In this document: positions 29,170 through 53,152 of the stretch, in pieces | How the letters are laid out: the number at the start of each line of letters is the position of its first letter | How positions within the stretch are numbered: position 1 is the first letter of the stretch | NCBI RefSeq assembly: GCF_033153115.1 | Contig: NW_026889750.1 | Location: forward strand, 5,828,001 to 5,892,000 | Source of the DNA: Saccostrea echinata | Taxonomy: Eukaryota | DNA length: 64,000 nt | Direction: 5' to 3' | Position numbers and translations under genes: made by a program | Notes under the pieces: model-generated | The model's database searches: none | What the model was told of the DNA's origin: nothing | The model's input: the letters and a program-made list of their open reading frames with translations, nothing else

Positions 29170-29370
29170 TTATATCAGAAAATCTTACGCTGAATTGTCT
29201 ATGTTTTTTCACGTTTACTCGATTACGACAAGGGGCACACAGCGGCGGTGACTGGTCCAAGGGGGAATCTTACTCCTTCGTGGCACCTGCTCCCACCTCT
29301 GATATTTTTAGAGGTCCGTGTTTGCTCTGATCACAATTTGTAATTTGAGCTTGATCACTGTTCTTTATCT
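29170..29370 (+). mobile_element. Solo Penelope-like 3'-end fragment
   Basis: GGGGCACACAGCGGCGGTGACTGGTC...CCCACCTCTGATATTTTTAGAGGTCCGTGTTTGC. Confidence 0.7.
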
Positions 29371-30848
29371 TAATAATTTATGAATTAATTTCCCATTAAT
29401 AAGATGGGGACATTTTGGGGTGTCATGATTCATTTACCTAAAATAACCATAATCTGAATTTTAGCATATCCTCAAGAAGATCATTTTTTATCCGTAGTTC
29501 ATTCAAGGACATCAACATCTTTCCATATCATAAGTAGAAAAGGAGATGTAGAATAATGAAATTAAAAGTTTGGTATGTATTGTTTACAAACTTTAAACAA
29601 AATAAAGGAATCCTTCCAATAATTAACTTTTAAAATGTTAGTTTCCATACAATACACATGAAGACGCTTAAAACCAATTTCTTTCTTTGGCATCACTTGA
29701 CAAAAAAGAAGTTATCCTTTAAATGTCTATCTGTTCCATAGCAATAAATCGACAAGGAACATGAGAAATCTTTATGACACCTATCACAGGTTTGGCAGCA
29801 AATTTGCATGCATTTTTGTTTTGATTTGCTTTTTGGTCCAAATGGCTGTGTAAAGAAAATAAAATTTCACCGAAATTCAGATCTCTAAATATTCCTAAGT
29901 TGACAAGGATGGATGTCATCATATACGACTGAACAACACTGATATAACAGTAAAATAATATACTTGCATCAGATTTGCCTTTGCCACTCCTCACCAAACC
30001 TCCCAAAATTTGAATCGTTGAAAAAAGATAATAAGGATGAAGTGTTTTACACCAGTGTGTGTTTTTATTGAATTCAAAACTTTCAAAGATATTCATCAAT
30101 TTAAAGAATTTAATATGTAAAGTAAGATGAAGATTCTGAACATTCAATACACACTACTAGTATGTGACTCTCAATACACAAACTTCAATAATATACTTAA
30201 ACACAAACAGATTTCAAATATAAACTAAGATCATAATAATAACACAACCCTGGCTTTAAGAAGTACATCAACGAATACATAAAAGAAGCTGTTCTTTATC
30301 TTTAGGCTCTTTCACAAAACATTCATCAAAAATAAACTATAACTGTACATTATATACTCCCAGAGGACCTATGCCTCCGTGTATGAAAAATGCAGACATA
30401 TATCTAAAATACTCAAATATAGACCTTTGTTTTATACATGGCTTTTACTCAAGGTATAACAAAAAAGCACACCCTCTACATCTAATTTTAAAGATCCTGA
30501 AACGAGCGATTTGCATTGGAGTTTCATGAAAGCATTTTTTCTGGATCTCGATATTCTTCAAACTTTGGTCATTAAAGGTTTGATTGAATAGGCATGCTCA
30601 CAATCTAGGCGTATTAAGAAAAAGTCAAGAAAAGATGACAACAGGAAAGGAAGAAGGAAAGTAGAAAGATTGTCCCCTGAATACAAGTTTGTGCCGAGTA
30701 CAGTCTTAAATGTGGTACATTTTAGTGTATTCTCATATTTTATTCTCTACAACTATGCATTTTGCTGAAGTTGCCCAAACTGAAGATGACATACTACTTA
30801 AAGAGAATGAAAGAAAAGATAAACTGTTTGTGAGCTCATTTTTATTTT

Positions 30849-31237
30849 TTACTCAGAACTGCTTATTTTACAAACATTTTTCAAGTGGTACCCTAAAGAT
30901 TCCCTCGTTCTCAATGCCTTACCACAGCGACTACAAATGAACAAAGCCTTTTGGTTGTGTGAAAGTATGTGTTTTTTCAGGAAGCTTTGGTATGGAAACC
31001 TTTTGTGACAGATTGGACACTTGAAGTTGGATTGTTGTCCATGGACAGCTGTCACATGATACTTGAGGGCGTTCACAGAACTGAATTCACGTCCACATTC
31101 CCAACATAAATGAGGTTTTCCATGAAATTTCTCTTCAAGAAGGTGTCTCTTGAAAGCTGACTCGTTTAAAAACTGTTCCTTGCATACTATGCACGATCTG
31201 GTCTTTTTAGAGAAATCTTCCCCTCTCGTTTCAGAAA
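30849..31237 (-). CDS. Variable terminal exon 2: 4 zinc fingers, last C2HC
   Basis: Acceptor ctttctttttccag at 31238-31239, phase 1; own stop. Confidence 0.87.
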
Positions 31238-34200
31238 CTGGAAAAAGAAAGTGATCTTCTGTTAATCGAAATGTTTTTGATTGTTGCATTTTATTTTCAA
31301 TCATATTCTCTAAACGATTAATACGATACTTATTGACACATGTTACACAAAAAATATTGGATGCATGGATTAATAAATATTTTTGGATATTTTTACGTTG
31401 TAAATTATGCATATATTAAATATCTAAAATATTAACGAATCGTAGACTCTATGACGTCCAAATTTCTTCCTTTTTGCTATCACCCCTATAAATCTTCACA
31501 ATTTTCTATCACTTTATAGAACATTAACGAGAAACCTTCATGAAAAAAAGAAACTCTGTGCAGTTAAACTTAATCATTTTACTTGTAAAAAATATATATT
31601 TATTTATTTCCATGATTTTTGAAAAAGTTTGTATTATCTGTCCGTAAGTGAGCTTTTTTGGTTTGTGTTAAGACACAAACACAAAAAATCCCAATTCACT
31701 GCTAATGTTCCTATTCATTCAAATTATTATGTACACGAAGTGAAGCAAAATGTCTACCTTAGAAAAATATTTATCTTTCGTAGATTCTCAGTGTCTGATA
31801 GGATTTCATAAGGTTATTTCTTACCATGTGAATAAAACAATTAACAGCATTTAAAATAATATAATTCTCTCTATTTTTTTGTATCCATTGGACAATGGCT
31901 GTTTGATTTTTATATTTTTATTTGTACTAACTTCTTGCTCTGATGAAAGAAAAAAATTTCACATTTTTAAGTAAATTATTCTGCTATTGAACAACGTAGG
32001 CTTTTGTCAGGTATGATCTCTTACAAATTAAATTAAAAGAAAATAATGAACAATAATCAAGATCATTATCCAATTAAACAACAAAATTGAGAGCAGAGAT
32101 ACAAAGACCTCTTGAAAAAAACAGACACTCGCAGTGGCCTCTTGAAATACATTGAATACACATTATCTTGATTTTGGTACCTAGTACAACTATATCATAA
32201 AGTATGTCGTTTACAGAAAATTATTGCATTCTTCGGAGTCGAAGAAACTAACTCTAATACATTTTTAAATAGCATTATTGCAATATTTGAAAACAGATTG
32301 TCATAAGAAAATACGGAAATGATGGACAATTATCACTTTCATGTTGCACTGTTTAAGTCAGAAACAAAATCAAATCGCTGACTTGAAAATATACATGGGG
32401 AAAACCCTTTATTTAAACCGATTTCTTTTTTTTTAGACAATACGGGTGTTATATTTTATATGTCTATCTGTTCTGTAGCATAATATAGGCAATGAATGAA
32501 TAAATCTATTTTGACGGCATAATTGCATGACTTGCATCCATTTGTTCATCGTCTTAAATTAAGAATATGATTAAAAAATATAATTTCTACTGGCAATTAC
32601 AACTCCCAGCATCTCTTAATGGACGAAAATGGATATATGTATATTAGACTGAACAAAACACAGATAGTACATAATTTGTCTTTCTCGTGCCTTTTAAATC
32701 CCAAATAATAATTAACTCCTTGGAAAAATAACAAATAAGTGATCAAATGAGATTTTTATTGACTACTAATCTCCTTTTTTAATAATAAATCTAAAGCATT
32801 ACAACAGAATATGTCAAGAAAAAATTAAGATTTTAAACATTCAAGAAACACCCGCGGTTCTCCATGTAATATACAATCTTCAAAAAATCTTGAAAGCTTT
32901 AACATAGACACATTCAAAAAACACTCAACGCTATTAAATATACAACATTGGAATTATTAAGTTCTACATCAAGGCATACAAGTATTAAAGCTGGTTTTGA
33001 TAATTTGGCTTTTTCATAAAACATTTAAAAAGGGCTAGAACTGTACATGTCCGTGATGGTCCCTATTCCCTCTGAAGAATGCAAACAATGAGATATTCTT
33101 AAAATACTCTTTCCCTGCACTTCACATTCAAATATATTTACTTTTGTCTATGACTTTCACTCAAGGATAACATACCGTTGTCGAATAAAACAAAATTCTT
33201 TGTGAACAAAAATAACTCAGACATTTTGAAACCTCAACGTTAATCTCAACATTTCCTATGAATAAGCCAGTTTGGACAACCATTTAAGAACACTAATGCG
33301 TCACAGAGAGCATAAATACTGAAACGAAAGCTATCCAGGAACAAACTCTAAGCACTGACTATCTGCACTACTTTGGATCATGTAATTTTCGCAACACCTT
33401 ATTTTTACAAAATTGCTATTTTGCATTTATGAGAGAGACGAATTTCGGTCATTACTCTGTAAACTTTAATAATACTTATTACCCAGGAATGAAATTTTCG
33501 AGAAACAGAAAGTGTCACGTTATTATATGAAAATAAAATTCTAGCGAATAAAAAGTGATTTACAGTATTTATGTCAAAATTGAAAAATCAATTTAATATT
33601 TGTAATTGATGACATAACTTTTTAATGTGTTCTCTACAATTCAGTCTTTACAGTTTGGTCCTTTTTAAATGACAATACTTTTTGGATCAGTCGCATATTT
33701 CATCTGAAGTGTTTTCACCATATCCTTCATAAATCATTATCTCGTCTGAAAATTTGTGACCTTCAATATCAAAATGATAAACACCAGCTGATTATTCTGA
33801 TACACACTGGACAAGACCAACCTAAATGTAAACTGCTGTGTTTTGACCATTAAGCATCAGAAATTCTAAGGGCAGCAAGATATCAACTTGATGAAGATAT
33901 ATGCTACATGTCGTTTGGGATCAAGAAAAAATTAAAGTGGTTGATTCCACGAGGATGAGCTGTCATTAGTAATTGAAATTGATTACTGACATCCCAAGTA
34001 CAACTTTGTACATATCTTTGTGAAATCTTACTAAAATGGATTAACTGTACAATTTTACCTCTCTTTAAAAGAGCGTTTGTTTAACTCCATTTGAACTACA
34101 GATCAGTAATTTGTATACCATGAAAAACACAAAAAACTCTTCAAGCAAGTTCAAGTTCAAATCACCTTTCATCTCGCGAGTATTCGAACTTATGAGTTTT

Positions 34201-34336
34201 GAGAACGTTTATTACAGACCTTTTGTACAATATTTACAAGTATAACGTGTTCATACCACCTTACATGCATTTCTGATGCCAATCTATCAATCAAAGAATA
34301 AGATGTAAGTATAGAATCGTGTTTTACAGCCATACG

Positions 34337-34719
34337 CTATTTTTCCGAGGAATTTAAGATTAGATGGTCAGGATTCTTCCTCAAATGTGAGCTAAGATGA
34401 GTTCTAGATGGAAACTTTTTCTTGCAGGATTTACAAGGATACTTATTGTTTCCCACTAAGTGAGTGGTACCTAGGTGGTATTTTAGGGCAGTTTTGGAGT
34501 TGAATGGTTTTCCGCACAGAGAGCAGACGAGATCTGCGTCAAAGTTGTGGTAATTTACATCCAATAGATGTTGGTTAAATTTGGATTTCTTGAATCCTCT
34601 GCGGCAGGTGTGGCAGGTGACTTCGTTTCTTTCTTTGTCTGGAAAATTTTTCTTCTTCTTCCCAAGGCTTACCTTAGTCTTAGGCGGGTTGTAAACTTCA
34701 TTTGTTTCAAGGAAATAAA
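34337..34719 (-). CDS. Variable terminal exon 3: 3 zinc fingers
   Basis: Acceptor ttttatttcag at 34720-34721, phase 1. The frame is open upstream of the listed ORF (…KKKKNFPDKERNEVTCHTCRRGFKKSKFNQHLLDVNYH…). Confidence 0.85.
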
Positions 34720-36665
34720 CTGAAATAAAATGAAATGAATATATTCTTTACCGTTAAAACATAACATTTAACAATACTATAAAACTTCTTCTTTGATGTT
34801 TAATTAAAATATATATATAGCAAGGAAAATGTCAGAAATGGTAAAACAAACACAATTTTACTTTTTTTTCTTTCTTTTAGATTTTAAGTTATATAAAATA
34901 AACTCTTAACATCAAAACGAAAGCAATAAAGACTCTTTACAGGAGAATTTTATCTGTATGTCTGAAATTCTACTTTTTCTTATTAACAATAGGCGACTGG
35001 TCCTTATATTCGCCTCAGTTAAAAAACCTTCAAGGAATAAATAATAAACAAATGTGAACAGCCCTAAATCTCACAAGCTTTTCGTGTTTATCTATTATAA
35101 ACTAATACCCTTAAAAATTGAGTTTATCCATCGTTCAAAGTGACCTTTATCTTTGGAAAATATCCTTGAATTGTATAGCTAAAAATTATTATAGCCATGT
35201 ATGTGCTTTTAGACAAGTATGAGTTTAAATATTCAAGTTATGGACCAAATTTAGCTCCATGCTTTCATTTCACATTTGACCTCAATGCATCAAAATTTAT
35301 ACTTACTAACTTATGGACCCAATGTGCAAAATAAATTTCTCTAGCGAAACCATTCTCCAAATATTGCACAGAAAACTTAACTTCTACTTATTACTACAAA
35401 AAGGCCACCTTATCAAACCCTAGAACATTTTAAACTCAATGAACAAACCATCTTAAAACATTCTAAGGTTAATGAATATGATATCCCAACCCAAAACGTT
35501 CCAAACTTAAAGGATATCTTTATCCAAAACATTCCAAAATTAATACACAGAGACAAAAATCTTTTTACTAAATACATGTAGCACCAGAGGTACTTCTACC
35601 TATTTACCCCCAATTGAAAGACAGTCCCAGCACTTCAAAAGGCCAACCTATGATGATGATGATGTAAACATTACAGAACTATACATTTACAGGCTACTGA
35701 TTTACTAAACTAATATCAAGTGAGGTTTTTATCCAACTAGCACATTATACAGATATGGGCGTCCCAAAACAAACCTTTCTGAATTCGAAGATATTGTATA
35801 TTTATCAATTTTTTTTGTTTCCCCTCATATACAATACATTGTATTTGGTTAGAATTACTTTTTTGAGATGAAGATGAAAATGTTCATCAGATGACGCACT
35901 TTGCACTAGCGCAACAGGAACATATAGGAATTGATATTCCGAATAAGGCACCCAATTCACTCGAATGAAGTAACAGAATTGCATGGATAGATACCCACAT
36001 CATGATTTTCATCCATACGAAGATTCAGAAAAAAAGACCTATCAATTGATCAAAAATTGAAATGATTAAAATAAAAATAAATAAAAAGGCTTAAAATTCC
36101 TCATACATTGACCTTCTTTTAATGCTATTGAAGTGGGTCAGAGCACGCCTCGACATAAGCTTCTGTTGTGCAAAATGTAATTTTTTGAAGGAAGTCTCTA
36201 TTTTTTAGGAATCTATCTTCAATCATGGAGCATAAAGGGGGAAAACACATTTGGAATAATAATTTAAATATAACTTTTATTTTCCAAGGAAAAATCAATT
36301 GCAAGCATTGATTTACGATAAAAAAAAATCCACAGTTTTTCGCATTTCTGCCTAAGATTTTATTATTCCTGTGAAAGTTTAAGCACATATTTTCTTTACT
36401 AACATTTTTCTTAGCAAATAGATGACACTTAAAATAGATTGCCTATTGCAGAACTTTGCTAATCAGCAACAATAGACATGACTTGTGAAGTAAGGTTTCT
36501 GTTTTTTTTTTTAACATAGAAGCGCTTTTCAAAAAGCTGTTATTCCACTACTAGCATTAATCGTAGAGAACTTCTTCCTTTCCTTTTCCTATTTCTAGCT
36601 GTCCGTAAACATTTATATAGTAAGATCCCTTATTACCGGTAAACTTGTACAACCTGGAACAACTT

Positions 36666-36964
36666 CTACTGGGTTTCTGAGTGACTCTTCATGTGATTAT
36701 TGAGGTGTGTTCTGCTTGGATAACTCTTCCCACATAGATAACAACAGTGAACTTCTTCTCCTTCATTGTGAACAGTGGAGAGATGATACTTTAAGGCTGT
36801 CTTCGAGTTGTAAGGTTTTCCGCATCTCATACAAATTATCTTATGGCCATGGTTATCAACCTTTACTAGATGCTGCCTGAATGCAGGGCGGAATACTTCT
36901 TCATCGCATATATAACACCGAACGTGATCTCCACTTACTTGTCCCACCTTTCCAACTATCTCTC
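36666..36964 (-). CDS. Variable terminal exon 4: 3 zinc fingers
   Basis: Acceptor tcctcttctattacag at 36965-36966, phase 1. Confidence 0.87.
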
Positions 36965-37677
36965 CTGTAATAGAAGAGGAAAAATTGGATAAAATAACCT
37001 TTACGTCGATTTCTAATAACTGAGAAGTACTCTCATTCCCCCAAGAATGCAATTCAAAGGTTTTATTTGGTAACTCATTTTCACGCAAAAAACCCCCCCA
37101 GATCAATCCATTACTGATTTTAAAAGAAAATAAATATAATTCTACTACGATTATTGCCGAGATCAAAGAAATGCCGCGGACATTATTCTCCAATAAATCA
37201 CGAACGTCATCAAAAAATTATCAGATCAGAAACACATGTCAAATCTGTACAGTTGAAATAAATATTTCACTGTATAATCTAATACTTATATAAACCACAT
37301 CGATGTGTCGTCTTCCGCAGTCTAAACGTGTGTATTGCCTGAAACAGCTGATAAATATCCGTTTTTATAGCCAAGTTGGGCTGTTCTATGGACCTCCCCA
37401 CAACATTTACACTCCCGTGATTTTACTGATAAATCAATGAAATAGACAACTGGTTTTGTTATTTTTCATTCATAAAAATTAATCAATATATGATACAAGC
37501 AACTTTGTAAATAATTAAAGGATATTTTTAATCCAACGAAAGCTGAAATCATCTGCATTTAATGCAATCGATTGACCCTCTGGTGTTAAATGGAACAGCG
37601 AAATTGCGACATGGTGATCTAATTCGTTTCTCTATAGAGAAAACGATCAACTGTATTTTAGAGCCGTTAGTAGAATA

Positions 37678-37845
37678 GAAATAAAGTCCTTGTTGTCGTA
37701 AATGATGCAGGATAACCTCCTCGATCTCGAAATGTTGTCTGAAATATAAAAGCCTCGGCTAACGCCTCGGCTTTTATATTTCAGACAACATTTCTCGACC
37801 TCGGAGGTTATCCTGCAACATTCACGATAACGCGGACTTTATTTC
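37678..37845. repeat. ~168-bp palindrome, apex CTCGGCTAACGCCTCG
   Basis: GAAATGTTGTCTGAAATATAAAAGCC pairs perfectly with GGCTTTTATATTTCAGACAACATTTC; outer arms are imperfect. Confidence 0.9.
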
Positions 37846-38363
37846 TTAAATAACCACTCACCAAACTTAATTAGCAATGCAAACAAGCATCTTTTATGTC
37901 ACAATGGAATATTCTCAGAATATAAATTCTGAGGATGAAAATCGATACGCTTTGTCATGATCTGATTTAAATATATACATGTATATGTATGCTGTTCAAT
38001 TATCTACGTTCACATGATTGTTAACAAAACTGAATGCATAAAAAATTAATAAATAATAAATTTCATTTCAGTATTTTTAGAAAGATTTTAATAGCAACCC
38101 ATTAATATTTACATTTATACATTATACAATACTGAATACTCAATACAAAACTAACGATATTGTTTAATTTTTATTCACAAAATTCAAGTTCGCTCAGGTA
38201 CATGAAAGAGGTATCCGAAAAAAAAACAAGCGGATGAGGTTAAAAAAATATTTGTCACAACTTATTTTCTTTGTGTTTATTTTACAACATTTGAAACCAA
38301 ATGAAGACATATATGCTATAAAAGAAACTAAAAACTCTCTTCTATTGTATCTCTTCATTTCTT

Positions 38364-38758
38364 TCATTGTTTGTTACATTTATTATATTTCAAATGAACT
38401 CCCAAATTTGATTTGTGTTTGTATGACTTTTTACAGTGTGGACATGTAAAGCAAGCCTGGTCAGAATGACTCCGGGAGTGGTCCACAAGGTAGCTCTTTG
38501 TTGGAAATGTTCGGTCACACTTATCACATTTAAAATTGCTATAAAACGAATGTGCAGTTGATAGGTGATATTTCAGCGCTGATCGAGAATTGAATGGTTT
38601 ACTGCAGTGTAAACACATCTTCTTGTAGCCGTGGAATCTAACATTATGGATGTGTCTTGTCAAACCCTCAATGGATTGAAAATATGTATTGCATACATAA
38701 CACTGAGGGGGCACGTTGTGTTGGGCAGCTGCCGTTTCTACGGAAGGTGAGTCCTCAC
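38364..38758 (-). CDS. Variable terminal exon 5: 4 zinc fingers, last C2HC
   Basis: Acceptor tttattcgtag at 38759-38760, phase 1. Confidence 0.87.
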
Positions 38759-39165
38759 CTACGAATAAACCAAATTTTCATTATAGTCAGTGTATATCTT
38801 TTTTTTTTTTTTTTACTTTTTATTAAATTGTTTGAAGCACACTTTTAACTTCTATTGATATCTCATTTAAAGTTTTCGGGTATGTATAAGTTTTATTAAT
38901 AAACCTAAATTCTCACACAAGTCTTCATTACAATCAGATGTGAAAGGAAAACACAGTCGTGATCTTTTATCTGTTATTTTTATTTTCTTCCATATTGAAG
39001 CATTTAAAATACATTTAGTTGTACCTTCAACTATAGAGAAAAAGAAAGATTGCATATCACCAACAAACATTGAAAAAAAGCAGCCAACTAAATTAAAGAA
39101 AAATAGAAGTCAAGTCTGTGCTCTTTATAACTATACGAATTTCAAGTCAGTTATATGCATTTTCC

Positions 39166-39599
39166 TTATTTTGAATGTTTCAACCTACACGACTTTTCAT
39201 GACGCAACATCACGTGCTTATGTTTGAATTCACTTTTACACAAAGAACACTTCCAAGGTCTGTGATCAGAATGGACTTTTTTGTGCACCATTAACACAGA
39301 CTTTGCAGAGAATGCTTTATTACAGATATCACAACGTGGACAATCTTTCCCAGCTTCGTGTTCCATGCGCTGATGCTGTTGTTGACCAGTGATGGTCTTG
39401 AACCCTTTACCACATACTTGACATATCACTGCAAATCCATGATTGTGTACCGATTCATAGTGCTTTAACAAGACCTGGGTATTCGGAAAAATTACCAGAC
39501 AATATTTACAGAGAGAATTTTCAAACTGGGAGGGTACATCTGTCCTTATCGACCTTTTTTGTGTTACTAGTGCGTCGCGTATTCCTCTGCCCTGCGGTC
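39166..39599 (-). CDS. Variable terminal exon 6: 4 zinc fingers, last C2HC
   Basis: Acceptor ttttctatatttacag at 39600-39601, phase 1. Confidence 0.87.
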
Positions 39600-42500
39600 C
39601 TGTAAATATAGAAAATAGCCAACGGTGATCATCAAGTACTGAACAGAGATCTTTAATCACAGTGTAAAGGTCTTTGAAGTCAAACGAACATCGTTCAATA
39701 TTGAAACCAATTCGTGTTCTTGCCCGTATAATTTCTTTTTGAAATCAATTGTCCTTTAACAAGAGTATTTCCCATCTAATTATACAATTTAATGCATTAC
39801 TATATATTTTTAATGTTTCAGACATTGACTTTTAAAATAACATCTTCAAAACTTTTTAAAATTTTTATTTATTTATTTTTTTTTTATATTTTGTTTATTT
39901 TAGAATACTTACGCAATTTTTATTCCTTCAAATATTTTGAGTGTTCTTTATTTCCAAAAATAAGGAAAAAGAAATATAACTATTACATAGGATAAGAATT
40001 ACCACTTTTAAAGCTTGGACAATAGCTACATGTTAGAGTTAACAAATGTATATCGATTGTTTTAATAATAAGTACAGTAACGTTTCAAAACGACCGTCAG
40101 TGTAAACAACAGACAGCTACTGGCGATTGGAAGTTTTAGTGATTGCTTATAATATGAAACTCTAATTCCAAACATCATTTAAAGACAACGAGTAGCATAT
40201 ACACCATAAAGGATCAGAAAATAAGCTTCTGTACATTTTAAAATGCTTTGAAAAAAGTAAATTTACTTATGTGCATTGTTTCTGTCAAAATTTTTGCCTT
40301 CTCTAAAATTTATTGTACTGACATACGTTAAGGTCAAGATCTAGTCAATGAGTTTAGGCTGTCTTTTTGGTGAGCACTTGATCCATTGTGACGTCATAAT
40401 TGATTTAAACTTACTTTTTTCACGTATTTTACAGCTATAACAGAATTATGTAGAAAATAACGCATTTTCATGGAATTCAAATTAAAATCATGTCAAAAGT
40501 AACACCGATACCTATATTCAATTTAATATCATTTTAACTGTAGGCAATACTGAAACATTCCTTTGTCCTTGATGGAAAAAACTCCATGTTTTTACCAGAT
40601 TTTTCCTCATTTTTTATTCAAAAAGGCAGTTTAAAATATGTTTTTTCGTAGAGTTTACCTAAAAATTATGTCCCGATACACCTTAATTTATTAAGCTATA
40701 ATTGTAATAGATTATTAGAGAAATTTGTTTCTGAAATTTGAGAAATCTGTAGGCACTCTTCATTTACTAAATCTTGACTTTAAGCAAAATTTAGTAAAAA
40801 AAAAAAAACATTATGATAAATATTCTTCAAATTATCCGCATCATTGTTAGTTTCCGAAAATTACACACGTCCGACTGTAATATACGAGTGCTCGGTTCTA
40901 GTAAAACCAAGAAAACCAAGACCAAGAGGTCCTCTGCTTATGTTTGATTTTCCCGCACATCAAGTAACACAATACAATAATTATATTTCGTATGTATTTC
41001 TTTGGTATCCTTACCCTGGAATTACAACTTAGCGAATATAATATATAAAAGTATTCCTTTTTATGAAACGTTTGTCAAGGACATAACATCCATTTTTAAA
41101 GTCCAAGAAAAATGCCCTCGACAAAATAAAATGATTTCATAGAATAAAAGCACAAATTTCATAATAAAGACGCATAACATGACAAAGCTTCATCATTATA
41201 ATTCCCTGCCTTTAACAGTATGTATCTACAGAATTAACAATTCCATTTCTCTCCTATCTTGACAAAACATCACTAATCTACAGATGCAGAATTTCAAACA
41301 CAACAGCAAAGAAGCAAAAAACGAAAAACAAACCCAACTTTTCCATATTGAAGTAATGTCCAAATGATGTAGCATCAATCAATGCATCATATAGCATACA
41401 GAATTTCCTTTATTTCAATTGTTATGGCTCTGATAATCGAAATTCAGAAATCTTTCAGCGAATGATACAACAATCCAATCAAAACAACTGGAAGGATATA
41501 GATTCGTATAAGAATTAAAACACAGAAGATCGTGTTTAGAAAGGATTTTAAATCCAAGGATATCTCCTTCTTTACATAAAGTGCGCTTTGCAAGTTCGAA
41601 TTCCACAACGTGTGAATCTATCCATTTTCTTCCTTATCTTGAAAAACCTTTTCCATTTCCAAACACGAAAAGGGTGATCCAATTTCTTTTTGTACACTAG
41701 TATCTTTCCATAAGCTAAAGGATCACTTCGTTATAAATATAGCTCAGACCTACATGGCCTGTTTAAAATGAGGTATAGTTTCGCTAGACTGTGTAGTAGT
41801 AACACAGACTTTACGATTTCCTTTCTCTCTGTATTTTATATCAAAAAACAAACATGCATTAAAGAAAGATAACTGAAGGAAAATACACTTGTCAAGCCCC
41901 TATAAAAATTAAAATAGTTTGAAAAGACAAAACTGTAAAAGTGTAGTGAAAAGTGGATTCGAACCATTTCAAAATGTATAACTAAACATATGTATCAAGA
42001 ATCAGCGATGTGATTTTTGGACAGGTCAGGCGTGCCCCGAAAAATATCCTATTTTAAATTATTTTTTAGATCACATCCTATCAAAATATCATAATTTTAT
42101 TTAGGGGCAGGCCTGCCGTGATGGACCTCTAGGCCAACATTTATGGAAAGGTAAGTGCTTTTTCAGGGAAAATGCTATTTTACCCAACTTTGAATATTAT
42201 TTTCAAAATTGCAAGTGATAAATTTAAGGTTCAAATTGCAAATTTGAAAAACATTAGACTGATTTTTAAATGTTACTTTTTTCCGTGAAATTGTTCTTTT
42301 CTATAGACCAATTTTTTTTTTAATTCAGAACATATCCTTTTGTTTAGACTGTAACGAACACAGAAATATGGGACTGTACCCTTAAACAGATGTTGCTTAA
42401 AACCGGGGTTCGTGTCCTTACCTTGAGCCAGCGACACTAAATTCAGACAAAATAAGGTTTGTAAGCGTAAAAACCCCGTCCTCGCATTACTATGCAGCTA

Positions 42501-42803
42501 AAGAATTTTAGAGAGTCGAGGGTTGGCTGTGACAAACTAATTACATAACCCATTTTATAAAATTTATTTCAAACGGATTGACTACAAATAAATCTTGAAG
42601 AACCGTAGATTGTTATCCTTAAATGCTACTTTCACTTAAGTATGCAAACATCTGGTTATGAGCTAAATTATTTTACTTTATTTACAAATAAAAACCACTG
42701 ACACCATAAAAAACTGACTGCCCTTGCTGTATACATGCCACAACAGACATCACATCGTATTTGAAGGAATTCATATACAACAGTATACAATCACATGATT
42801 AAT

Positions 42804-43210
42804 TTAATTATTTGTTGATTGCTGATTTTGTTTTCTTAAGCATCTTGCTATGTGATCTTTTAAATTACTTTTATGCTTGAATCCTTCAAAACAAAACGAG
42901 CAAGTAAAATATCTTTGTTCTGAATGTCTTTTCATATGTCTTGCAAGGTGGCTTTTGCTTTGATTTGCTTTTCCGCAAACGGAGCACCTGTGTTTTTGAT
43001 TAATCATCCGGTTATGATACACATCCCAGTGAACCTGAAAACTATTTATATTTGTGTATCCCTTCACACACACCGGGCAGATTTTCGCAAAACCATGATT
43101 GTTAACCTCTTCAAAGTGCTTTCGTAGATCCACGGAAGCATGCTTGCAATAAGGGCACATGCCAGATGCAGAAGAAGATCTCCCATCTAATCTGTCAAGT
43201 TGTTGCATAC
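42804..43210 (-). CDS. Variable terminal exon 7: 4 zinc fingers, last C2HC
   Basis: Acceptor ttttctctcgatgtag at 43211-43212, phase 1. Confidence 0.86.
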
Positions 43211-43582
43211 CTACATCGAGAGAAAACTTGATAAGACTTATTTTTCAATCATTTTAACTTAGCCAACATGTCAATGATTTACGCCCTTAAATCTTAAATT
43301 AAAGGAAAATCTTAAGTATTTAGATTTAATTGATACAGTAAAATCTATCCAAATTTTTAAGTTTCAAATGAACCTCAAGTAACAAGAGCGACAACAACAA
43401 CAACAACAACAAAATAATACTCCTAACTTGCATATGAATTCATAAAAAGATTTTTGATAAAAAGAATATATTTTTTGACCGGAACATTAAACCCATTGTA
43501 TTCAAAAAGTGTACATAATTGATCCGCAAGGACATTATATTGAAAAAGAAATTCTCTCTTGCCTCATCAACAAAAATCTATT

Positions 43583-43908
43583 TCATGAAAATTTTGCCTC
43601 AGTTGGTACACGTTTGCAGCTTCTTCTAATGTGGTCTTTTAAACTCGATTTGTGTTTGTACGTTTCACCACAGTAACTGCATACAAAGTTTCTCTGGGTA
43701 GAGTGGGTAATCATGTGTCTTCGGAGATGAGCAAAACTTATCTGTGGTTTCCCACATACATTGCAAACAAATTTTCTGGTTTGTGAGAGATCCCTTTGGT
43801 CCTTTGCATGGTGCTCTTGGTAGTGTTTTACAATCTCACTCGCTGGGAATGTGATCCGACAAAAATGACAGAAAGTTGCGGACGCAGGATTATTTCTCAC
43901 AGTGGCGT
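43583..43908 (-). CDS. Variable terminal exon 8: 3 zinc fingers, last C2HC
   Basis: Acceptor ttttactgtatattacag at 43909-43910, phase 1. Confidence 0.86.
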
Positions 43909-45955
43909 CTGTAATATACAGTAAAACAGGTGAATAGTCTAATCCCTTGTGTACGTCTTACCCAGTTAAGTGGTATTTAACCAAAGAAAGAATATACTCT
44001 TAACCAACGTCTATGTATCATATATGCATTGAATATTTGTTTTCTTTACCTCTTCTAATATTTTTTAACTGCCCGAAACCTGTCTATCCGCCTTCTGTTA
44101 AATCATAGTTCATAAGAAACGATTAATAAAATGTTTGCTATCTTACAAGTACTATTTTCTACTAGTTCTCATAAAGTTTTACTGTTGATTGATTGATTGA
44201 TCGATTATTGTTTAACGCCGAGTCGGTAGTATTTCAGTCATATATCAATTTTGTTCAATTCAGCTTGGAAAAGAAGTTTTAAGAAAATATCAGATTATTC
44301 CAAGAAAAAAATAATTCAGAAAACACTTTTAAAGTATTGTGCATTTTGATGTTCTTTACGCTTGAGCACGGCCTGGTTCAAATCACAACAAAACTGAAAG
44401 AAGATTATTTGAACAGATTATTTTATTTTTATTGGCCATGGTATCGATACCATCGACAACGAAATGTGTATCTAATTAAACAAGACCTTACTCAAATTTG
44501 ACCATCCTGCTGATGTAGAACAATTTAAAAATAATTCAATAGACCATTCCATTTCTCCTGACAATGGGAAAATAAAAATCAAAACACAGAAGAAGTCTCA
44601 AGAGCACCAAGTTCTTTTCAAGTCACTAAACATAATAGAGAATGGGTAACTGTTTGAAATCTTGAAAACAAACAGAAGAACTTATAATGGACATATTACC
44701 AGAACGTGAAGCCTTAATTCAATAATACCAATAACTCTCTGTTACGATGAAGTAAAATATACTCCTTGTCATCAGTTTTACAGCAGAAATTTGTTATGAA
44801 TAAAGTGGGGTCTATTCAATTTTAGAGTACTTTGATCATTGGCAGATCCTGTGATATTTCTTGAATAACTATGTCGTACCACTCGAAATACTCTAAATAC
44901 ATTGATTAAAACAATGTTCATTAAAATTGATGAAGCAAATTTAATAAAACGCATTATCTAGAAACTTGACACATGATTGTAATGAAGCTTGGTTGCAAGA
45001 ACCGAAACTTCCCTGCCAACAAGTTTTTTATATGTCATCCTGAACGAAGTCGTACATCCTGTTATTGTTCTACCAAATATTATCAGTAATAATAATCACC
45101 ATGTGTAGTTGTGCATGTAACATTCAATATGGCCGTCGTTGCCATGGAAACGGAGGAATTTCAGCTTGGCTGATATATGATATTGTTAATGCAGTTTCTT
45201 GTGCTTTGGATACATATAATAAAAATCTTTTGCTATGTAAACGGAAGAATGTCAGTTTGGCTTATATACGCTATTGTAGACACTTTCGTATGCATGGGAT
45301 ACAGATAATAAAAATCTGAATGTGCTTCTGACAACAAGCAAGGCATGAGCATCCCAATATTGTGCAAATTCCAAGTTCTTCCAAGTTTGGGAGTCGGGAT
45401 GTAGCTGCAATAACGTTCAAATCACTAAATAAGAATGTAGAACTTTTTTCTAAGATATTTTGATTAACAACAATTTCTTATTTCAATTTCCTAACATCCA
45501 TGGTAGGTGAGATTCACGTTTGTTAAAGTCCTTGGAACAGATAAGGGCTGTAATTTTACATAAGGTCTTGCAGGCTTTCTCCAGAACAACATGGCTAAAA
45601 GAAAACAAGAATCAGTATGATTAAGGTTCAAAACCAAGCACTACATAGGACCAGAGCTTTGCTAAAAGAGATGTGACATAGCGATGAATGTGGCCCAGTA
45701 GTCTTTCGTTTCAAATTCATTCTTTATAGTTATGAAATGAATGGATACTTTAAACAAACAAGACAAAAAGCATGAATACATCTTTATTGAAAATTCAGAA
45801 ATACTCCTTATGTACAAACACAATAGACAATCAGCTGTTACTCAAAATAAAATCACACATATTTAATACACCCAAGAAACTTGAACTATGAGCGGGAAAC
45901 AAGCATTTTACAAAAAGGATTAGCTAAACTCCTCCTTTATATAAATAAGGTACGA

Positions 45956-46278
45956 TTAAAAATCCTTCCTAACAAGCCTTGCTTTTGCGTGAGTTAACAA
46001 GTGGCGCTTCATGACATCATGTCTTTTGTATGACTTATTACAGATAGGACACGAAAAGGGTTTCTCAGAGGAATGCGTTGTCATGTGTCTTTGAAGATGA
46101 GCAAAACTTATCTGTGGTTTCCCACATACATTGCAAACAAATTTTTTGGTTTGTGAAACACCCCTTTGGTCCTTTGCATGGTGCTCTCGCTGGTGTTTTA
46201 TAATCTCATTAGCTGGGAATGTGATCCGACAAAGATGACAAAGGGTTGTAGAAGCTGCATTTATTCTCACAGTGGTGT
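45956..46278 (-). CDS. Variable terminal exon 9: 3 zinc fingers (chimera-like)
   Basis: Acceptor ttttcctgtatattacag at 46279-46280, phase 1. Confidence 0.86.
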
Positions 46279-46720
46279 CTGTAATATACAGGAAAACAGG
46301 TGAATAGCATATCCTTCTTGAACTGTCCGTATTCAATAATAAAATTAGCACATTTTCAAGACAGGCCTTTGTAAAACAAAAAATATAGAGTTTAATTTTG
46401 TCATCGGACCACTGAGGAGGAATACATTCTACCTTTTAACTGCATACACGAAGCCAGCATCACATCAACAATCCCTCTCAGTCAAAGAGCATTAGCATCA
46501 CCACAAACATCTTACTATTTCTTACAGCTGACAAGAGCAAAGGAGAACTAAGACAAACTGAATAAATTATCTTTCTTTACAATTCAAATTAATTCCTTAT
46601 GTTTAAAATGACTAGAATATTCCCAGTTCTGCGCTGTGAAAACATGACTACACATAGATAAGTTCTATTCAGTGTAATATACTACTATGGAACACAGCAT
46701 TTAACTCCTGATTTCAAATT

Positions 46721-47097
46721 CTAACAGAAAAATTTGTCGTGAATTAACAAATGGCGCTTTAGTACATCATGACGCTTGAATGACTTATTGCAGAATGGAC
46801 ATGAAAAGGGTTTCTCAGACGAATGCGTTGCCATGTGCCGCTTCATGTTTCCCGAATACTGAAACGATTTGAAACAGACAGGGCAAATAAACTGTTCTGC
46901 AGTATAATGTGATTTCTGTACATGTGCGTCTAGTACTTGACGATTCTGAAAATATTCTCCACATTTGCAGCAATTCAGTACACTCCGAGTATGCTTTTCA
47001 TGTTCTAGCAGTTCGTCCACATTGCCAAAAGAGGTTCCACATATGTAGCATTTCACAAAAGAACCGTCGTTAGTCCTCTCTGTTTGCTCTTTTGATC
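46721..47097 (-). CDS. Variable terminal exon 10: 4 zinc fingers
   Basis: Acceptor ttttatttccttag at 47098-47099, phase 1. Confidence 0.87.
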
Positions 47098-47459
47098 CTA
47101 AGGAAATAAAACAAATGGAAATGGTACATCTATCTCAAATGAATATCAAAGATTACGTATTTAATAATACAAATCCGGTATTGTTTACAGAACCGAGAAC
47201 AATTCACCGAACCTACAAACTGCAGAAATACCTGTTCAAATACAAACAGTAACTTAAAAAATATAATGTATAAACTTCACAGGCAATCCAAAGCCAAGAA
47301 AAAAATTCACTGCAAATCCACTACCCATTTAAGCACAACAAATATCCAGCAACATTTTTAACGAACATCCTGAGCTCGACAAAAAGACTACATGAAATCG
47401 GCGATCATTGCAAACTGTCCAATTAAACGCTTATTAATTGCAATCCAAAACGTTTTTCA

Positions 47460-47686
47460 TCAATGTCTGAAAACTTTTTGTCCCATATGATACAATTCTC
47501 CGTCTTTCACTTCGAATTTGTCTTTATTCCGCCAATGTTGTAGGTATGCATTCTGCTGTTCCCTGTTCCTCAGCTTCTGGGGAACTCTGAACCTTCCCAA
47601 CACCAATTCAACAATGGTATCGTAACGAACACTCCTCAAAAATCGAATTGGGCGTGCCTTTGGTTCATCCAAAATACGAAGAGCAT
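47460..47686 (-). CDS. Variable terminal exon 11: non-zinc-finger basic domain
   Basis: Acceptor ctttattttaacag at 47687-47688, phase 1. Encodes ALRILDEPKARPIRFLRSVRYDTIVELVLGRFRVPQKLRNREQQNAYLQHWRNKDKFEVKDGELYHMGQKVFRH*. Confidence 0.7.
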
Positions 47687-48497
47687 CTGTTAAAATAAAG
47701 GCATACCTTTGGTAATTTGTGAAATAATACACCCGTAACCTAAAATTATCTTTTCTTATTGGTCAATTACTGACAAGAGAAAAAACTGTATTTGAAATCT
47801 GATTTAACCTTCATTTAAATCTGATTATTTCCCTGAAATATCACCAAATCGAAACTGAACCTAATGCATACAATTGTCTTTCTTAACAAACATTATTTCC
47901 TTTATGAAATCTTCGTAAGCTGATAAAAGAGTATGCGCCTGGTCTATATTCGACATTCACATTCTATCAGAGATGCACTTCCTTAATATGTGCTTCCTCT
48001 TGAAAAAAAATCTCCGATACCGATAATTGGCCAAGAGGCCAGTCAAGTCTAAAACTTGTTTAATACATGTAAATTTAAAGAAGATTATTAATCTTTAAAG
48101 AATTTTTATTCAACTTCTGTACCATTCGTTCGAAACTAAATAAACATATTTTCACAAATACGTCCATTCAGTGATATTTAAAAATCCACCAAATACATAT
48201 CTTTAAAAAATGTCTGTTGACTTTGATTTTAACACAGTAATCAAACTTATTAACTTTATTTGCTTCGCAAGAAAGCCGCTTATTAAGAACCAAGCAATTC
48301 ATCTACACAACATAAGATTTTAATGACGATATCAAAGGTAATATTTTGGAGTTATGGTACACAAACACCTCTTAACAGTGAAAAGACTTTTACAAAAACA
48401 TTTTAATACCATGCACAGCCCCCAGAAACTGCTTTTGTTTCATTTAATTTTGCTTTAGAAAGCTTAAAATCACCTCTCCATTGAAATGTTTTCCTTT

Positions 48498-48766
48498 CTA
48501 AGTAGTTTGAAAACAAGAACTCGGATGCAGTTTATGCACACCCATAACGTGTTGGTTTAGTATATCTTTACGCGAAAAATTTTTGTCACAAAATGAACAC
48601 TTGAACGGCCTCTCTAGCGAATGGCGTGCAATGAAATGACGGCGGCAATTTCGAAGATTTTTAAATTCTTTTCCACAGACAGGGCAGTACAAATCCTTTA
48701 TCTTTTCTGCAACAATTCTTTGAATACTGTTATCGTCTGTGATTTCAGAATAATCTTCCATGTTTC
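48498..48766 (-). CDS. Variable terminal exon 12: 2 C2H2 fingers
   Basis: Acceptor ctttttttctccag at 48767-48768, phase 1. Confidence 0.88.
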
Positions 48767-48851
48767 CTGGAGAAAAAAAGGTACTTTTTATTACAGACAG
48801 AAAAAGTAATTTGTTACTTCATGGTTTTCTGAAAATTGTTTCATATTTTTC

Positions 48852-49069
48852 TCATTTTGTCTTGTTTTTGTGCACTATACAAAAATGCTGCCTCAACACA
48901 TCCTTTCGTTTGAAAGATTTATCACAAAGAGAGCATTTGAAAGGTCTTCTATCTGAATGAATATCACGTAAGTGACGTCTCATATTGCTTTTATTATGAA
49001 ATAATTTCCCACAAATAGAGCAACACAGATCCTCATCCCAGTTCGATTCTCCACTCCTCATAGGAAAGC
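48852..49069 (-). CDS. Variable terminal exon 13: 2 C2H2 fingers
   Basis: Acceptor ttttctttctgtag at 49070-49071, phase 1. Confidence 0.88.
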
Positions 49070-49326
49070 CTACAGAAAGAAAACACCAGTTTTAAAAAGA
49101 TGTTTATTTTAATTCTTTCTACTTCTAATTCACAATTCAACTATTTCTTGTTTTTAAAATGTACAAATCCCCGTCTAATAAAATTCATTTTTAATACAGA
49201 ACGATTCTACAAAAAATAGACAATAAGATTTCAATCTGAAGATTATTTCAGGTGGAATATTTACATATTCACATATGCCAAATTAGGGTGGTTTTAAGCG
49301 CAAAGTCATTATTTCATATCAAATGG

Positions 49327-49643
49327 CTACATGGCCATCTTCCCTCGCTTAATTTTATGCACACAAAACAAATGCTGCGTCAACACATCTTTTCGTTTAA
49401 ACGACTTTTGACACAATGAACAACTATAAGGACGTTGCTCAGAATGCGTAGCTGCCATGTGACGCTTCAAGCTAGTTAGATGCTGAATTCTCTTGTAACA
49501 TATTGGGCACTTGAAGGGGTACAGTTGTCCACCGTGATCTGATTTACAATGCTGTTCGTATGTTGCTACGGAATCAAACCTTCGTCCACATTCACAATTT
49601 ATGACATTTGAATCCATGTGGAAATCACCTTCAACCCCAAAGC
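49327..49643 (-). CDS. Variable terminal exon 14: 3 fingers
   Basis: Acceptor ttttttttcttcgtag at 49644-49645, phase 1. Confidence 0.88.
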
Positions 49644-50046
49644 CTACGAAGAAAAAAAATGCAGATTTCGTAATATCATTGAAACTCCAACAACTTTCAT
49701 GTTACAATTATATATCAAGGCAAATCATATTGCGATGGGAACACTTTCGACCTCTGATCTTTCAATGAAAAGAAAAGCTTCCCATATCAAGCCCAATAAC
49801 CTCTTCCACTTTGCCTCAATGCAATCAACAATTATGAGAATAAATTAATCAATTGTTTATGCGGTTTTGTTCCACAGAAATCGAATACAACCTTCGACGA
49901 TAACAAACGGCAAACACGTTTTTCAACATTGATTATTACAATCTTGTGACAAAGTGACATCTCATCTCGCAAATTTAAAAAAAAAAAACAAAACAACAAC
50001 ACATTTTTAAAAAGTCATACATGTACGAAACTCAGCAGGTGTGAGG

Positions 50047-50408
50047 TTAACAATGTAGAGTTCTCCAGTGGTTTCGTAATGAATCTTTTCTATAGAAACT
50101 TTTGTTACATTTACTGCAATGAAACATTTTCCTATCAGTGTGAGTTGCCATGTGTCTTTTCATGCTGTGGAAATACTCAGAAGTAAGACCACAGATGTGG
50201 CACTTGTGGAGACGCCGATCCGCTTCATGCTTAACTTTATAATGATATCTATAGGCGTGGGCGCTTTTGAAGTATTTTCCACAATGACAAACAGAAGTTA
50301 TTCGATGTTCTGTTCTATAATGAATTTTAAGTTGCTGCTCTGTTGTCATTATTTGACCACAAACTCTGCAAGGGAATTGTTGGGATGGAATCTCCTCATT
50401 TAGATATC
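50047..50408 (-). CDS. Variable terminal exon 15: 4 fingers
   Basis: Acceptor tttcttatttcatag at 50409-50410, phase 1. The first finger CRVCGQIMTTEQQLKIHYRTEH starts upstream of the ORF-track Met. Confidence 0.88.
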
Positions 50409-50706
50409 CTATGAAATAAGAAAAAAAAAAGCTTAAAATTTTAGTCCTATCTTGTGCAATTTACACTCCACACGATGTGATAGTGCAGTATTCTACAATG
50501 CAAATAAACACCAGACTACACCAACGACTTGTGAGTTTTCTTCATTTATTAATAATATGAACATAGATAACGACTCAAACATATGAACACAGAAACATTT
50601 CAACGTCTAAATAACATTGAAATATATAACATATATAGCTTTATCTCTAATTTTGTAAGAAGAAGCCAAAAAAAATTTGCAAAGCTATTGCTTATTTGCA
50701 TTCTTC

Positions 50707-50954
50707 TTATGTATTGGGATCCAAATACGCCGACTCGTTAAAAGTCTGATGTAATGATGTAATGTGCAATTTTAAATAGTCTTTTCTCTTGAAGTTTTTC
50801 CCGCATTCTTGACACTGGAATCGTCTCAATGAGTGGTGAGTAGAGAAGTGTCGTCTTAAGTTACTCATGTATAGAGATGTTCGCCCACAAATCGCACATT
50901 GGTATCTGTTATTCTCCAATCGAATACAAGAATCACTGAATTTCTCAGCATATC
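50707..50954 (-). CDS. Variable terminal exon 16: 2 C2H2 fingers
   Basis: Acceptor attttcaatgtag at 50955-50956, phase 1. Confidence 0.87.
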
Positions 50955-51275
50955 CTACATTGAAAATAATTAAAATTGAAAATTTTGGAGGTTACATATT
51001 AAATCAAAGCACTAGCAGATAGGTATTTCTTGTATTCAATATCAAATGCAACAGCAAAAAATACAATATGTGCCTAATAGGAAATACAGATGTCATCCAT
51101 GTCCTCCAATTACAACATGTGTCCATAGTGAAATGCTCAGCGTCAGCAACCAATAAATAATAACTTTGAAAATTCAAATCAATTCTATCAAAAAGTCTCA
51201 CAAGAAGTAATTACACGCATAATTTTTTTTTAAAAATTAAAGACATCTCCAAACAAAAATCCTCGGAACAATATT

Positions 51276-51526
51276 CTAAGTCTTTGAATTGTCGGTCTTA
51301 TTTTTGTCGGGGAAATGCAAATACATATGCTGTGTTAAGTAGTCCTTTCTCTTAAATGACTTTGGACAAAGATTACACTGAAAACGCCGCTTAGTTGAGT
51401 GGCACGCAATGTGCCTCTTGACGCTACCACAATAAATTGAAGTGAAGCCACATATCGGACACTTGTATGATTGATTTCCGTGAGTTCTTATTGGATTAGG
51501 GAATATCTCTGGCTCCATTTGTGGTC
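51276..51526 (-). CDS. Variable terminal exon 17: 2 C2H2 fingers
   Basis: Acceptor ttatttctctgtag at 51527-51528, phase 1. Confidence 0.88.
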
Positions 51527-51781
51527 CTACAGAGAAATAAGACGAATTACAATGACAAATTTAAAATCTTTATTACTGAATGTTAAAATCATACAAATAT
51601 ATTACACAACAAAAAAGTGTTTTAAAGGTTAACATGAACCATCAAATGCTTAAATCCCTCAATAAAATTAAAAACAAGAAAAAAAACGTATACTAGTATA
51701 CTCATGAAAGAACTCTGAACCACTAATACAAGTATCAATGGTTTGTACTTCAATCAAACAGTATTTCTTCGAAAAATCAGA

Positions 51782-52029
51782 TCAGACAGCCTCAGGCTGA
51801 TAAAGAGGATGCGTGACATCCTTGTGATACAAAATGTGTTGTTTCAGATAATCCTTTCTTTTGAACGTCTTCAAGCAAAACTCGCACTTGTGTGGTTTTT
51901 CCTCCGAATGATTGGCCATGTGTCGGGTTAAATTAGTTCTATATAATGTTCTGAATCCACAGATAAGACAAACACAGTGTTTTTCGGAGTTGAACGAAGT
52001 GGTTTGTGGTATTTGGTGCCTGTGCTGGC
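51782..52029 (-). CDS. Variable terminal exon 18: 2 C2H2 fingers (not in ORF track)
   Basis: Acceptor tctcttctacag at 52030-52031, phase 1. …CVCLICGFRTLYRTNLTRHMANHSEEKPHKCEFCLKTFKRKDYLKQHILYH…*; no Met before the first finger. Confidence 0.88.
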
Positions 52030-52308
52030 CTGTAGAAGAGATAACCGGTAATTTCGTTACATTTTAACATAAATACTCGCTCCATAAAATTACATCATAC
52101 ATGTACGTATTAAAAATTGTTAATATATATTTAGTCTTCTCCCGTTTCAACCTGAACTTTCATATCATGCTTGTAATATCTTTACTCACAACCTTAGAAT
52201 CACAACACTACATGTGTACCGAAATTGCAAAAAAAAATCTTTTTAGATAAATATATATAATTATCCTTAGCAAAAGGTATATTAACAGTGCAAATCCTAC
52301 AATGCACC

Positions 52309-52538
52309 TTAAGAACTCTTTTTAAGGTGCACAGAGTCGACATGTTTCTTTAAATGATCTTGGCGTTTAAAGGTTTTGTCACATAAACTACATTCGTGTG
52401 GTCGAGCAGAGGAATGCATGACCATGTGTCTCTGATAGTTTCGTTTGGTTTTCAGCACAGTTCCACAAAGTAAACATGTGAAAGAGTACAAAAACGATGT
52501 TCTAGATTTTGTCGTGAAGAAGTCCATGTCCGGTACTC
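52309..52538 (-). CDS. Variable terminal exon 19: 2 C2H2 fingers
   Basis: Acceptor tctcttttctctttag at 52539-52540, phase 1. Confidence 0.88.
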
Positions 52539-52928
52539 CTAAAGAGAAAGAGAAAAAAACATATCAGAGATACTTGATTCCCTTCAGTCATTTTTTGAAT
52601 TAAAATTTACACGAACATCTAAAAACAGAAGACAATGTTCCAACGACTTCCTCTGCTGTTCCAATGCTGTTATTACCAATGTACTCCAAATCAAACAGAC
52701 TCCTTATACAGAATAGTGTGTATCATATATAGAAAGTAATCGGCTTATTGAACACATTCATAACACCAACAAAAATCATCAACGAAATTGCTTTTAATTA
52801 ACAATATAAAGTGAAGACTTTCAAAATGTACAGAGATCAGTCAAAAGTTTTTAAAGCTTAAGAGTTATTGAACATCGAATTCTTTGTTAAATCAAATTGT
52901 GTGTTTGGGCAATTTCAAATCTCTTCAT

Positions 52929-53152
52929 TTATTTAGTCTTCCGATGCGTACGCATGTGCGACTCCAAATAGTCTTTCCTCTTAAATTTCCTATTACATAT
53001 TGCACATACATATGGTCTAATGTCCGAATGTTGGATCATATGTCTTTTAAGACTCGCTTTATGAAGTTGTAATCCACACAATGGACATGTGGTGTAGGTG
53101 GAAGAGGAGGACTCGGTTACACCTATTTTTCCGTGCATCACCTTTAAAGGTC
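52929..53152 (-). CDS. Variable terminal exon 20: 2 C2H2 fingers
   Basis: Acceptor ttttgtcttctgtag at 53153-53154, phase 1. Confidence 0.88.

Follow-up and report, generated by a model that had tools for sequence, protein, structure and literature searches.

An alternative last exon of an oyster BTB gene is homologous to the domain at the N-terminus of integrase-type DNA transposases

Arrays of interchangeable terminal exons that encode zinc fingers pose a simple question when one member carries no cysteine at all: where did such an exon come from, and what might its product do at the end of the protein? The window analyzed here, a 64,000-nucleotide stretch of the Saccostrea echinata genome (contig NW_026889750.1, positions 5,828,001 to 5,892,000), includes an exon of this kind, and an initial annotation proposed that it encodes a transposon-derived, putative DNA-binding domain. 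The features needed for the argument are as follows, in window coordinates except for the last two.

28272..62466, minus strand: array inside the window, comprising 35 listed phase-1 last exons (34 of C2H2 type plus the Cys-free exon)
46721..47097, minus strand: downstream neighbor, a C2H2 alternative last exon (orthologues P0004 and P0206)
47430..47435, minus strand: possible weak polyadenylation signal AATAAG, a candidate 25 nt past the stop codon
47460..47686, minus strand: coding part of the Cys-free alternative last exon (transposase-derived module), phase 1, 74 codons plus TGA; matches the tail of predicted RefSeq isoform X28 (P0133, XP_061175086.1)
47463..47663, minus strand: residues 9-75 of the exon peptide, predicted to form a helix-helix-beta hairpin and matching by homology the first ~65 residues of rve+OTU transposases
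47687..47706, minus strand: splice acceptor of the Cys-free exon, with its AG at 47688-47687 behind a short run of pyrimidines; weak within the array
48498..48766, minus strand: upstream neighbor, a C2H2 alternative last exon (RefSeq P0126)
G000:C1:5896687-5897060 (L021:4687-5060), minus strand: first exon of the array, Cys-rich and non-C2H2, 5 kb past the window end
G000:C1 ~5899526-5901489, minus strand: the three coding exons of the shared part, which include the BTB domain, 7.5-9.5 kb past the window edge

The protein part encoded by the three shared exons is 100% identical to protein LOC133184031 of S. echinata, whose cluster has 31 isoforms (15 listed), and orthologous clusters of 34 to 262 members are present in S. 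cucullata, Ostrea edulis, Crassostrea virginica and Magallana. We list 36 phase-1 last exons for this gene, 35 in the window and one beyond its end, although last exons without zinc fingers may be missing from this list. In four contig sets, presumed to represent RNA, the last shared exon contributes its 3′ end as a loose end behind at least five zinc-finger acceptors (52540, 53154, 54432, 49645 and 58249). These joins of the shared-exon end to listed acceptors indicate that splicing uses the members of the array as alternative last exons. For the bin that includes the Cys-free exon (47057-47707), the contig depth in sets X1 and X2 equals, by arithmetic, that of the neighboring exon's contigs alone, although gaps of this kind in contigs are no proof in either direction. 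Other contigs link one last-exon region to the next acceptor (43209-43562, 46278-46433, 49642-50020, 52028-52307, 60992-61229 and 61466-61799), and thus some transcripts appear to read through or to splice between tips. Elsewhere in the window, positions 1-27400 hold repeated scavenger-receptor-like and coiled-coil exons that are unrelated to the exon finding, and reverse-transcriptase-like fragments are located at 2059-2667 and 26612-27394, all of these being named by eye.

The Cys-free exon shares most of the formal properties of its neighbors. It reads on the minus strand, as do the remaining exons, from the AG at 47688-47687, a phase-1 acceptor compatible with the shared donor, through two bases and 74 codons to the TGA at 47462-47460, which is directly followed by a second TGA. 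The resulting 75-amino-acid peptide begins with an Asp residue whose codon spans the junction (its G is provided by the shared exon) and falls within the array range of 72 to 144 amino acids. The strand, the phase, the similar size, the exon's own stop and the quoted sequence motifs (Y-x2-I-x4-L-G through F-E-V-K-D-G-E-L-Y) were all described correctly in the initial annotation. Two details need revision, since the junction had been placed at 47687, one base ahead of the first exon base at 47686, and the acceptor had been called strong. With 11 pyrimidines in 17 positions, this acceptor ranks 35th of 36 by a leave-one-out weight matrix of array acceptors, of which 15 are fixed by RefSeq isoforms and 21 are best guesses. 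Given this weakness, the corresponding isoform may be a minor one.

The peptide carries 17 Lys or Arg residues versus 10 Asp or Glu residues (net charge +7) and no Cys, versus 4 to 10 Cys residues in each of the 35 other listed exons. It had been presented as the only Cys-free exon of the array, which holds; it is not, however, the only non-C2H2 one, as the first exon of the array has a different, Cys-rich pattern. To us, this pattern recalls the C-terminal zinc domain of piggyBac. The first exon has no Pfam match, is spliced in S. cucullata isoform P0150, and is possibly a second transposase-derived tip of the same gene.

The evidence for splicing of the Cys-free exon consists of predicted RefSeq models. 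When 213 BTB-family and related proteins were searched with a profile built only from transposases, two full isoforms were found to carry the exon tail: P0133 (XP_061175086.1) from S. echinata and P0186 (XP_034321560.2) from M. gigas. Both models consist of the shared BTB part and the exon tail joined at the predicted junction, and four fragments of the same exon were also matched. The exon is thus annotated as a spliced alternative last exon of LOC133184031, one of ~36 predicted C-termini, and the proposal that it serves as an interchangeable C-terminus is borne out by gene models in two genera. Only 15 members are listed per cluster for Ostrea, S. cucullata and C. virginica, such that the absence of the isoform there is uninformative.

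Conservation of the reading frame in relatives, whose absence had been named among the findings that would refute the proposal, is evident from the comparison with M. gigas. The open frame, acceptor position and stop codon are common to both species, and the tails align without a gap at 59 of 75 identical residues (79%) behind the same shared exons. A third sequence, P0002, is identical to the exon tail at 60 of 75 positions. For the shared part, 463 of 547 residues are identical between S. echinata and M. gigas (135 of 140 in the BTB region and 328 of 407 in the rest), and the gene's zinc-finger tails show 55-82% identity with those of Magallana (14 of 18 rows with a counterpart in the exon list). 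A metagenome scan for orthologous exon DNA gave 595 pattern matches, of which none was confirmed.

The origin of the exon became apparent when the genome was searched with its peptide. This search yielded 22 matches, of which two are solo domains and 20 belong to four transposon families (A-D), represented by intact or broken copies. The long open reading frame of these families begins with an exon-type domain, followed by an integrase core and an OTU domain (present in all three transposase frames tested), with a weak F-box match in one family. The exon is 48% identical to the closest transposase family over 62 residues, with E-values of 3e-12 to four copies. A profile of 50 transposase rows that includes no host module detects the exon at E 5.9e-23, while the next best of 1965 frames scores 0.19, and hhalign aligns the exon with the transposase domain over 65 columns at 99.4% probability. 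None of 1000 shuffled sequences reached the exon score against any of the four families (scores of 101-150; shuffle maxima of 53-58). The transposon origin proposed at the outset is therefore well founded. Specifically, the homology of the exon covers residues ~1-65 in rve+OTU DNA transposases, and no other part of a transposase is left at the locus: no remnant of the integrase N-terminal domain (NTD) or core was detected within 80 kb (best E 0.40-0.43). The exon also lacks nucleotide similarity to present elements.

Among the 18 positions that are conserved in at least 60% of the 50 transposases, the exon keeps 14, including Y22, F33, P36, R40, W52 and R53, and thereby retains two near-invariant arginines. 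The four positions at which it differs are Q37, N41, H51 and Q70, and any binding specificity may have changed as a consequence.

The donor elements are best resolved for family C. Its members are ~9.1 kb long, with TG..CA ends and imperfect terminal inverted repeats (~350 bp in three of four copies), and carry a single rve+OTU open reading frame between these repeats. Perfect 6-bp target duplications flank three of the four copies, the targets being GC-rich. The copies are 96-99.7% identical to each other, and therefore are young elements. In one copy of family D, the TG..CA ends lie 7.3 kb from each other and the flanks match at five of six positions. Starts of TGTTA and TGTTG are seen in families C and D. 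Inverted repeats were sought at families A and B, and none was resolved. At four loci (L041, L044, L047 and L051), the donor elements are young, 7-9 kb long, and carry an integrase core, OTU and a tail resembling an F-box. In families B, C and D, pyrimidine-rich AG sites lie no more than ~20 bases before the start codon, and these sites may serve the elements as acceptors of their own.

The initial annotation had likened the exon to the helical segment just N-terminal to the H2C2 motif of Gypsy, Ginger and GIN1-type integrases. The position of the segment ahead of the integrase NTD and core was predicted correctly, but the donors do not match in detail: the H2C2 pattern of His and Cys residues is absent from all four transposase families, PF17921 gives no match to the donor transposases at E<=0.1, and the target duplications, in the one family where they are seen, are 6 bp. 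On these grounds the donors do not fit the definitions of Ginger1/GIN1 or Gypsy elements. Ginger1/GIN1, as defined in the accessible text of PMC2836005, shares with the donors TGT..ACA-type ends, an integrase core with a C-terminal OTU domain and a conserved segment before the NTD. However, it has H2C2 and a 4-bp CCGG/CCGT duplication, and the ~65-residue segment was not matched to its YPYY motif. A Gypsy LTR retrotransposon should have LTRs, gag and reverse transcriptase, in contrast to the single open reading frame between the inverted repeats of family C. Ginger2/TDD was rejected on the absence of H2C2 and on GC-rich rather than AT-rich targets; a duplication of 4-5 bp was expected for this group, although 6 bp is given in the part of PMC6839031 available. 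Polintons are large, with AG..TC ends and a DNA polymerase, whereas the donors have TG..CA ends, span ~7-9 kb and include no polymerase-sized open reading frame.

The donors fit IS3EU/GingerRoot better than Ginger1/GIN1 or Gypsy, a comparison made from published descriptions. As portrayed in the accessible sections of PMC10045372 and PMC6839031, IS3EU/GingerRoot elements likewise encode an integrase-type DDE transposase without HHCC, have terminal inverted repeats and a 6-bp GC-rich target duplication, and measure 4-13 kb; related sequences have been reported from the Pacific oyster. The donors depart from these descriptions in their TG..CA ends (a minority type there), in repeats of ~350 bp versus 100-150 bp, and in their C-terminal OTU domain, a term with no occurrence in the accessible text of either paper.

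The second solo match in the genome (G000:C14:13679270-13678969) is a phase-1 exon of a paralogous BTB gene, located ~440 bases past the last exon of its shared part, and therefore both of the solo copies found reside in BTB last-exon arrays. This sister gene on C14 carries a diverged copy of the module, 43% identical to the window exon, and the annotation of Crassostrea virginica shows this copy as spliced (P0216, a partial model that lacks BTB). The paralogue (G000:C14:13663500-13690009; L065, L052 and L066) has a mixed array in which the transposase module is accompanied by C2H2 exons and by three exons of the zf-Tnp_2 type (PF13842), one of the latter scoring above the Pfam cut-off. In an unrooted tree of 60 rows and 72 columns, each host group forms a starred clade whose stem is long (0.86 and 0.55) and whose between-species branches are short (~0.1 against the stem of 0.86). 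The best tree unites the two groups at a support of only 44/73, and thus one capture before duplication and two separate captures are both compatible with the tree.

BTB genes with many isoforms are not confined to these two loci. Several (P0003-P0122) from oysters, scallops and mussels have at least 20 annotated isoforms with tails that are C2H2, PF13842 or of no family, and many paralogues in scallops and mussels are likewise laid out with numerous isoforms, whose tails are often of the PF13842 type. These genes constitute a bivalve-wide family of arrays resembling that of mod(mdg4).

The ~65-residue domain itself is widespread. A profile search recovered 339 representatives at E<=0.001, and 60 of 152 classified proteins run on detectably into the transposase NTD or core. 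We discarded an automatic 'solo' label (82 of 152) as a count, since transposase sequence follows the domain in many of these proteins, which are short fragments. The domain is present in a starfish integrase-OTU transposase (P0284), and related proteins exist in a sea urchin and a hydrozoan, while host fusions have been found only in oysters so far. This distribution supports transfer from transposon to host. Among the relatives, a predicted protein of Lottia gigantea (P0219) has three solo copies, each ending at the domain boundary, which may be merged alternative exons and would in that case extend the capture to gastropods. A Diadema setosum model (P0218) has five near-identical tandem copies plus part of the next helix, and many relatives (P0252, P0275, P0315, P0321, P0326 and others) begin with a hydrophobic leader of ~20 residues that is either signal-peptide-like or a translated intron end.

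No Pfam family matches the exon at E<=10, and the domain is without a Pfam family. An AlphaFold model of the exon (pLDDT 85) predicts helices at residues 19-30 and 42-53 and a C-terminal hairpin. The transposase model shows the same two helices plus strands within residues 8-63, and its next helical domain begins at residue 66, the point that corresponds to the end of the exon, which therefore encodes one complete domain. Searches by fold gave no clear counterpart: the profile found one match among PDB sequences at chance level (E 0.44), and Foldseek, suggested earlier for the ~75-residue peptide, returned no match at E<=0.001 for the exon model (Ty3 integrase at rank 27, E 3.4). A wide VIA search with this model reached Z 2.8 at best, with none of 287 at Z>=2 on a second look, and these empty fold searches imply neither a new nor a different fold. 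The best ESM Atlas values, which serve as leads only, were 0.82 for the exon and 0.89 for the transposase domain, and a cluster at 0.86 has PF17921 in 33% of its members.

In weak whole-chain alignments of the transposase model (rmsd ~20-21 Å), HIV/SIV integrase NTDs align from residue 66, and for the integrases of foamy virus and Ty3 the alignment begins at the N-terminal residues. Foamy-virus integrase carries a DNA-contacting N-terminal extension (NED; described in the accessible part of PMC4132020), which would occupy the same slot ahead of the NTD as the domain studied here, a likeness taken from whole chains (model 9-294 on chain 8-309; rmsd ~21 Å) and not from the isolated domain. This shared slot, the excess of basic residues and the retained conserved positions, with their two arginines, lead us to infer that the domain likely binds DNA.

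BTB proteins dimerize via their BTB domain. Considering all observations, we judge it probable that the exon is the N-terminal ~65-residue domain of an IS3EU/GingerRoot-like rve+OTU transposase that is spliced to the BTB exons and places a zinc-free, DNA-contacting tip on the BTB scaffold. An element would have inserted into the array, or its 5′ part would have been copied there, in an ancestor of the genera Saccostrea and Magallana. Splicing from the shared exon would have been made possible by a phase-1 acceptor that preceded the start of the transposase, and a stop codon would then have become fixed right behind the first domain while the rest of the transposase decayed and selection retained the domain. 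BTB dimerization could pair this basic helix-helix-hairpin tip with itself or with the zinc-finger tip of another isoform, and the paired tips may change the site that the dimer binds in chromatin. Possible targets are the terminal repeats of the donor elements.

The same origin and splicing could, however, have produced a tip that contacts protein, be it a partner or the cognate transposase, or a dominant-negative module that acts through loss of zinc-finger binding. A net charge of only +7 and the weak acceptor would suit such a role, but Y22, R40, W52 and R53, which are highly conserved in transposases, are kept in both host copies, and all other listed tips of the array are Cys-rich, nearly all of them C2H2. 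A role in truncation alone would not need 79% identity between species. We therefore regard this alternative as rather unlikely. The weak acceptor might also be read as a cryptic site in a decayed transposon fragment that is spliced as noise and serves no function, particularly given how abundant transposon copies with the domain are in this genome. This reading is very hard to reconcile with a frame, acceptor position and stop that M. gigas has in common with S. echinata, with the survival of a single domain that has no nucleotide similarity to present elements, with a stem so much longer than the between-species branches, or with the conservation of the second such exon in the paralogue.

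The direction of transfer could in principle be reversed, with an old host domain having been picked up by transposons. The elements do carry host-like domains (OTU and the weak F-box), three solo copies reside in the Lottia gene model, and the tree is unrooted. However, many transposases have the domain as their fixed N-terminus, with the NTD and core directly behind it, and the few host fusions are placed among transposase rows in the tree; hence we consider this reversal highly improbable. A broader proposal is that bivalve BTB arrays act as capture cassettes for transposase DNA-recognition domains, with independent recruitment into two paralogues (and of piggyBac-type zinc domains into others), such that the isoforms bind and silence the terminal repeats of active elements. 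We hold this extension to be unlikely, but if true, it would constitute a splicing-based counterpart of KRAB zinc-finger defense.

Our search of the literature, which covered the main text of mostly open papers, found no description of the locus, the domain or multi-isoform BTB arrays of bivalves. According to the accessible part of PMC12111275, oyster BTB genes had not been the subject of any publication, and the terms 'Ginger' and 'piggyBac' do not occur in the text of PMC10027918 that was available. The finding thus draws attention to these arrays and defines a domain of ~65 residues with more than 300 representatives and no Pfam family. The locus also offers a clean test case, in which a host isoform, young donors whose terminal repeats are intact and a second captured copy in a paralogue are all present in one genome, and where self-targeting of donor elements by captured transposase domains can be addressed.

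Both capture of transposases by splicing and insect BTB genes with more than 30 last exons are already known; what is new is the donor family, a domain without a name, the trimming to a single domain inside a zinc-finger array, and the recurrence in a paralogue. In Drosophila, mod(mdg4) and lola combine a shared N-terminal BTB part with 30 or more alternative last exons, and 26 of 31 mod(mdg4) isoforms carry FLYWCH (accessible text of PMC4667647). The analogy drawn at the outset with mod(mdg4) holds as a matter of architecture, in that a BTB part is followed by many alternative last exons, most tips are of one zinc-finger type and a minority lack it. The oyster array differs in that its majority domain is classical C2H2 and all listed exons lie on one strand, so that cis-splicing would suffice.

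Fusion of host and transposase genes by alternative splicing is established in vertebrates, as illustrated by KRABINER, SETMAR and PGBD3-CSB (bioRxiv 10.1101/2020.05.07.082677, in the accessible part of which neither 'BTB' nor 'Ginger' occurs). In these genes, as in the oyster, splicing places a segment of transposase origin after a host regulatory domain, where it serves as an alternative 3′ end. The oyster exon differs from them in its BTB host domain, in its reduction to one ~65-residue domain, in being one of ~36 tips, in its integrase-type donor and in its occurrence in a mollusc, and it thereby extends transposase capture to a new animal group, host domain and donor type.
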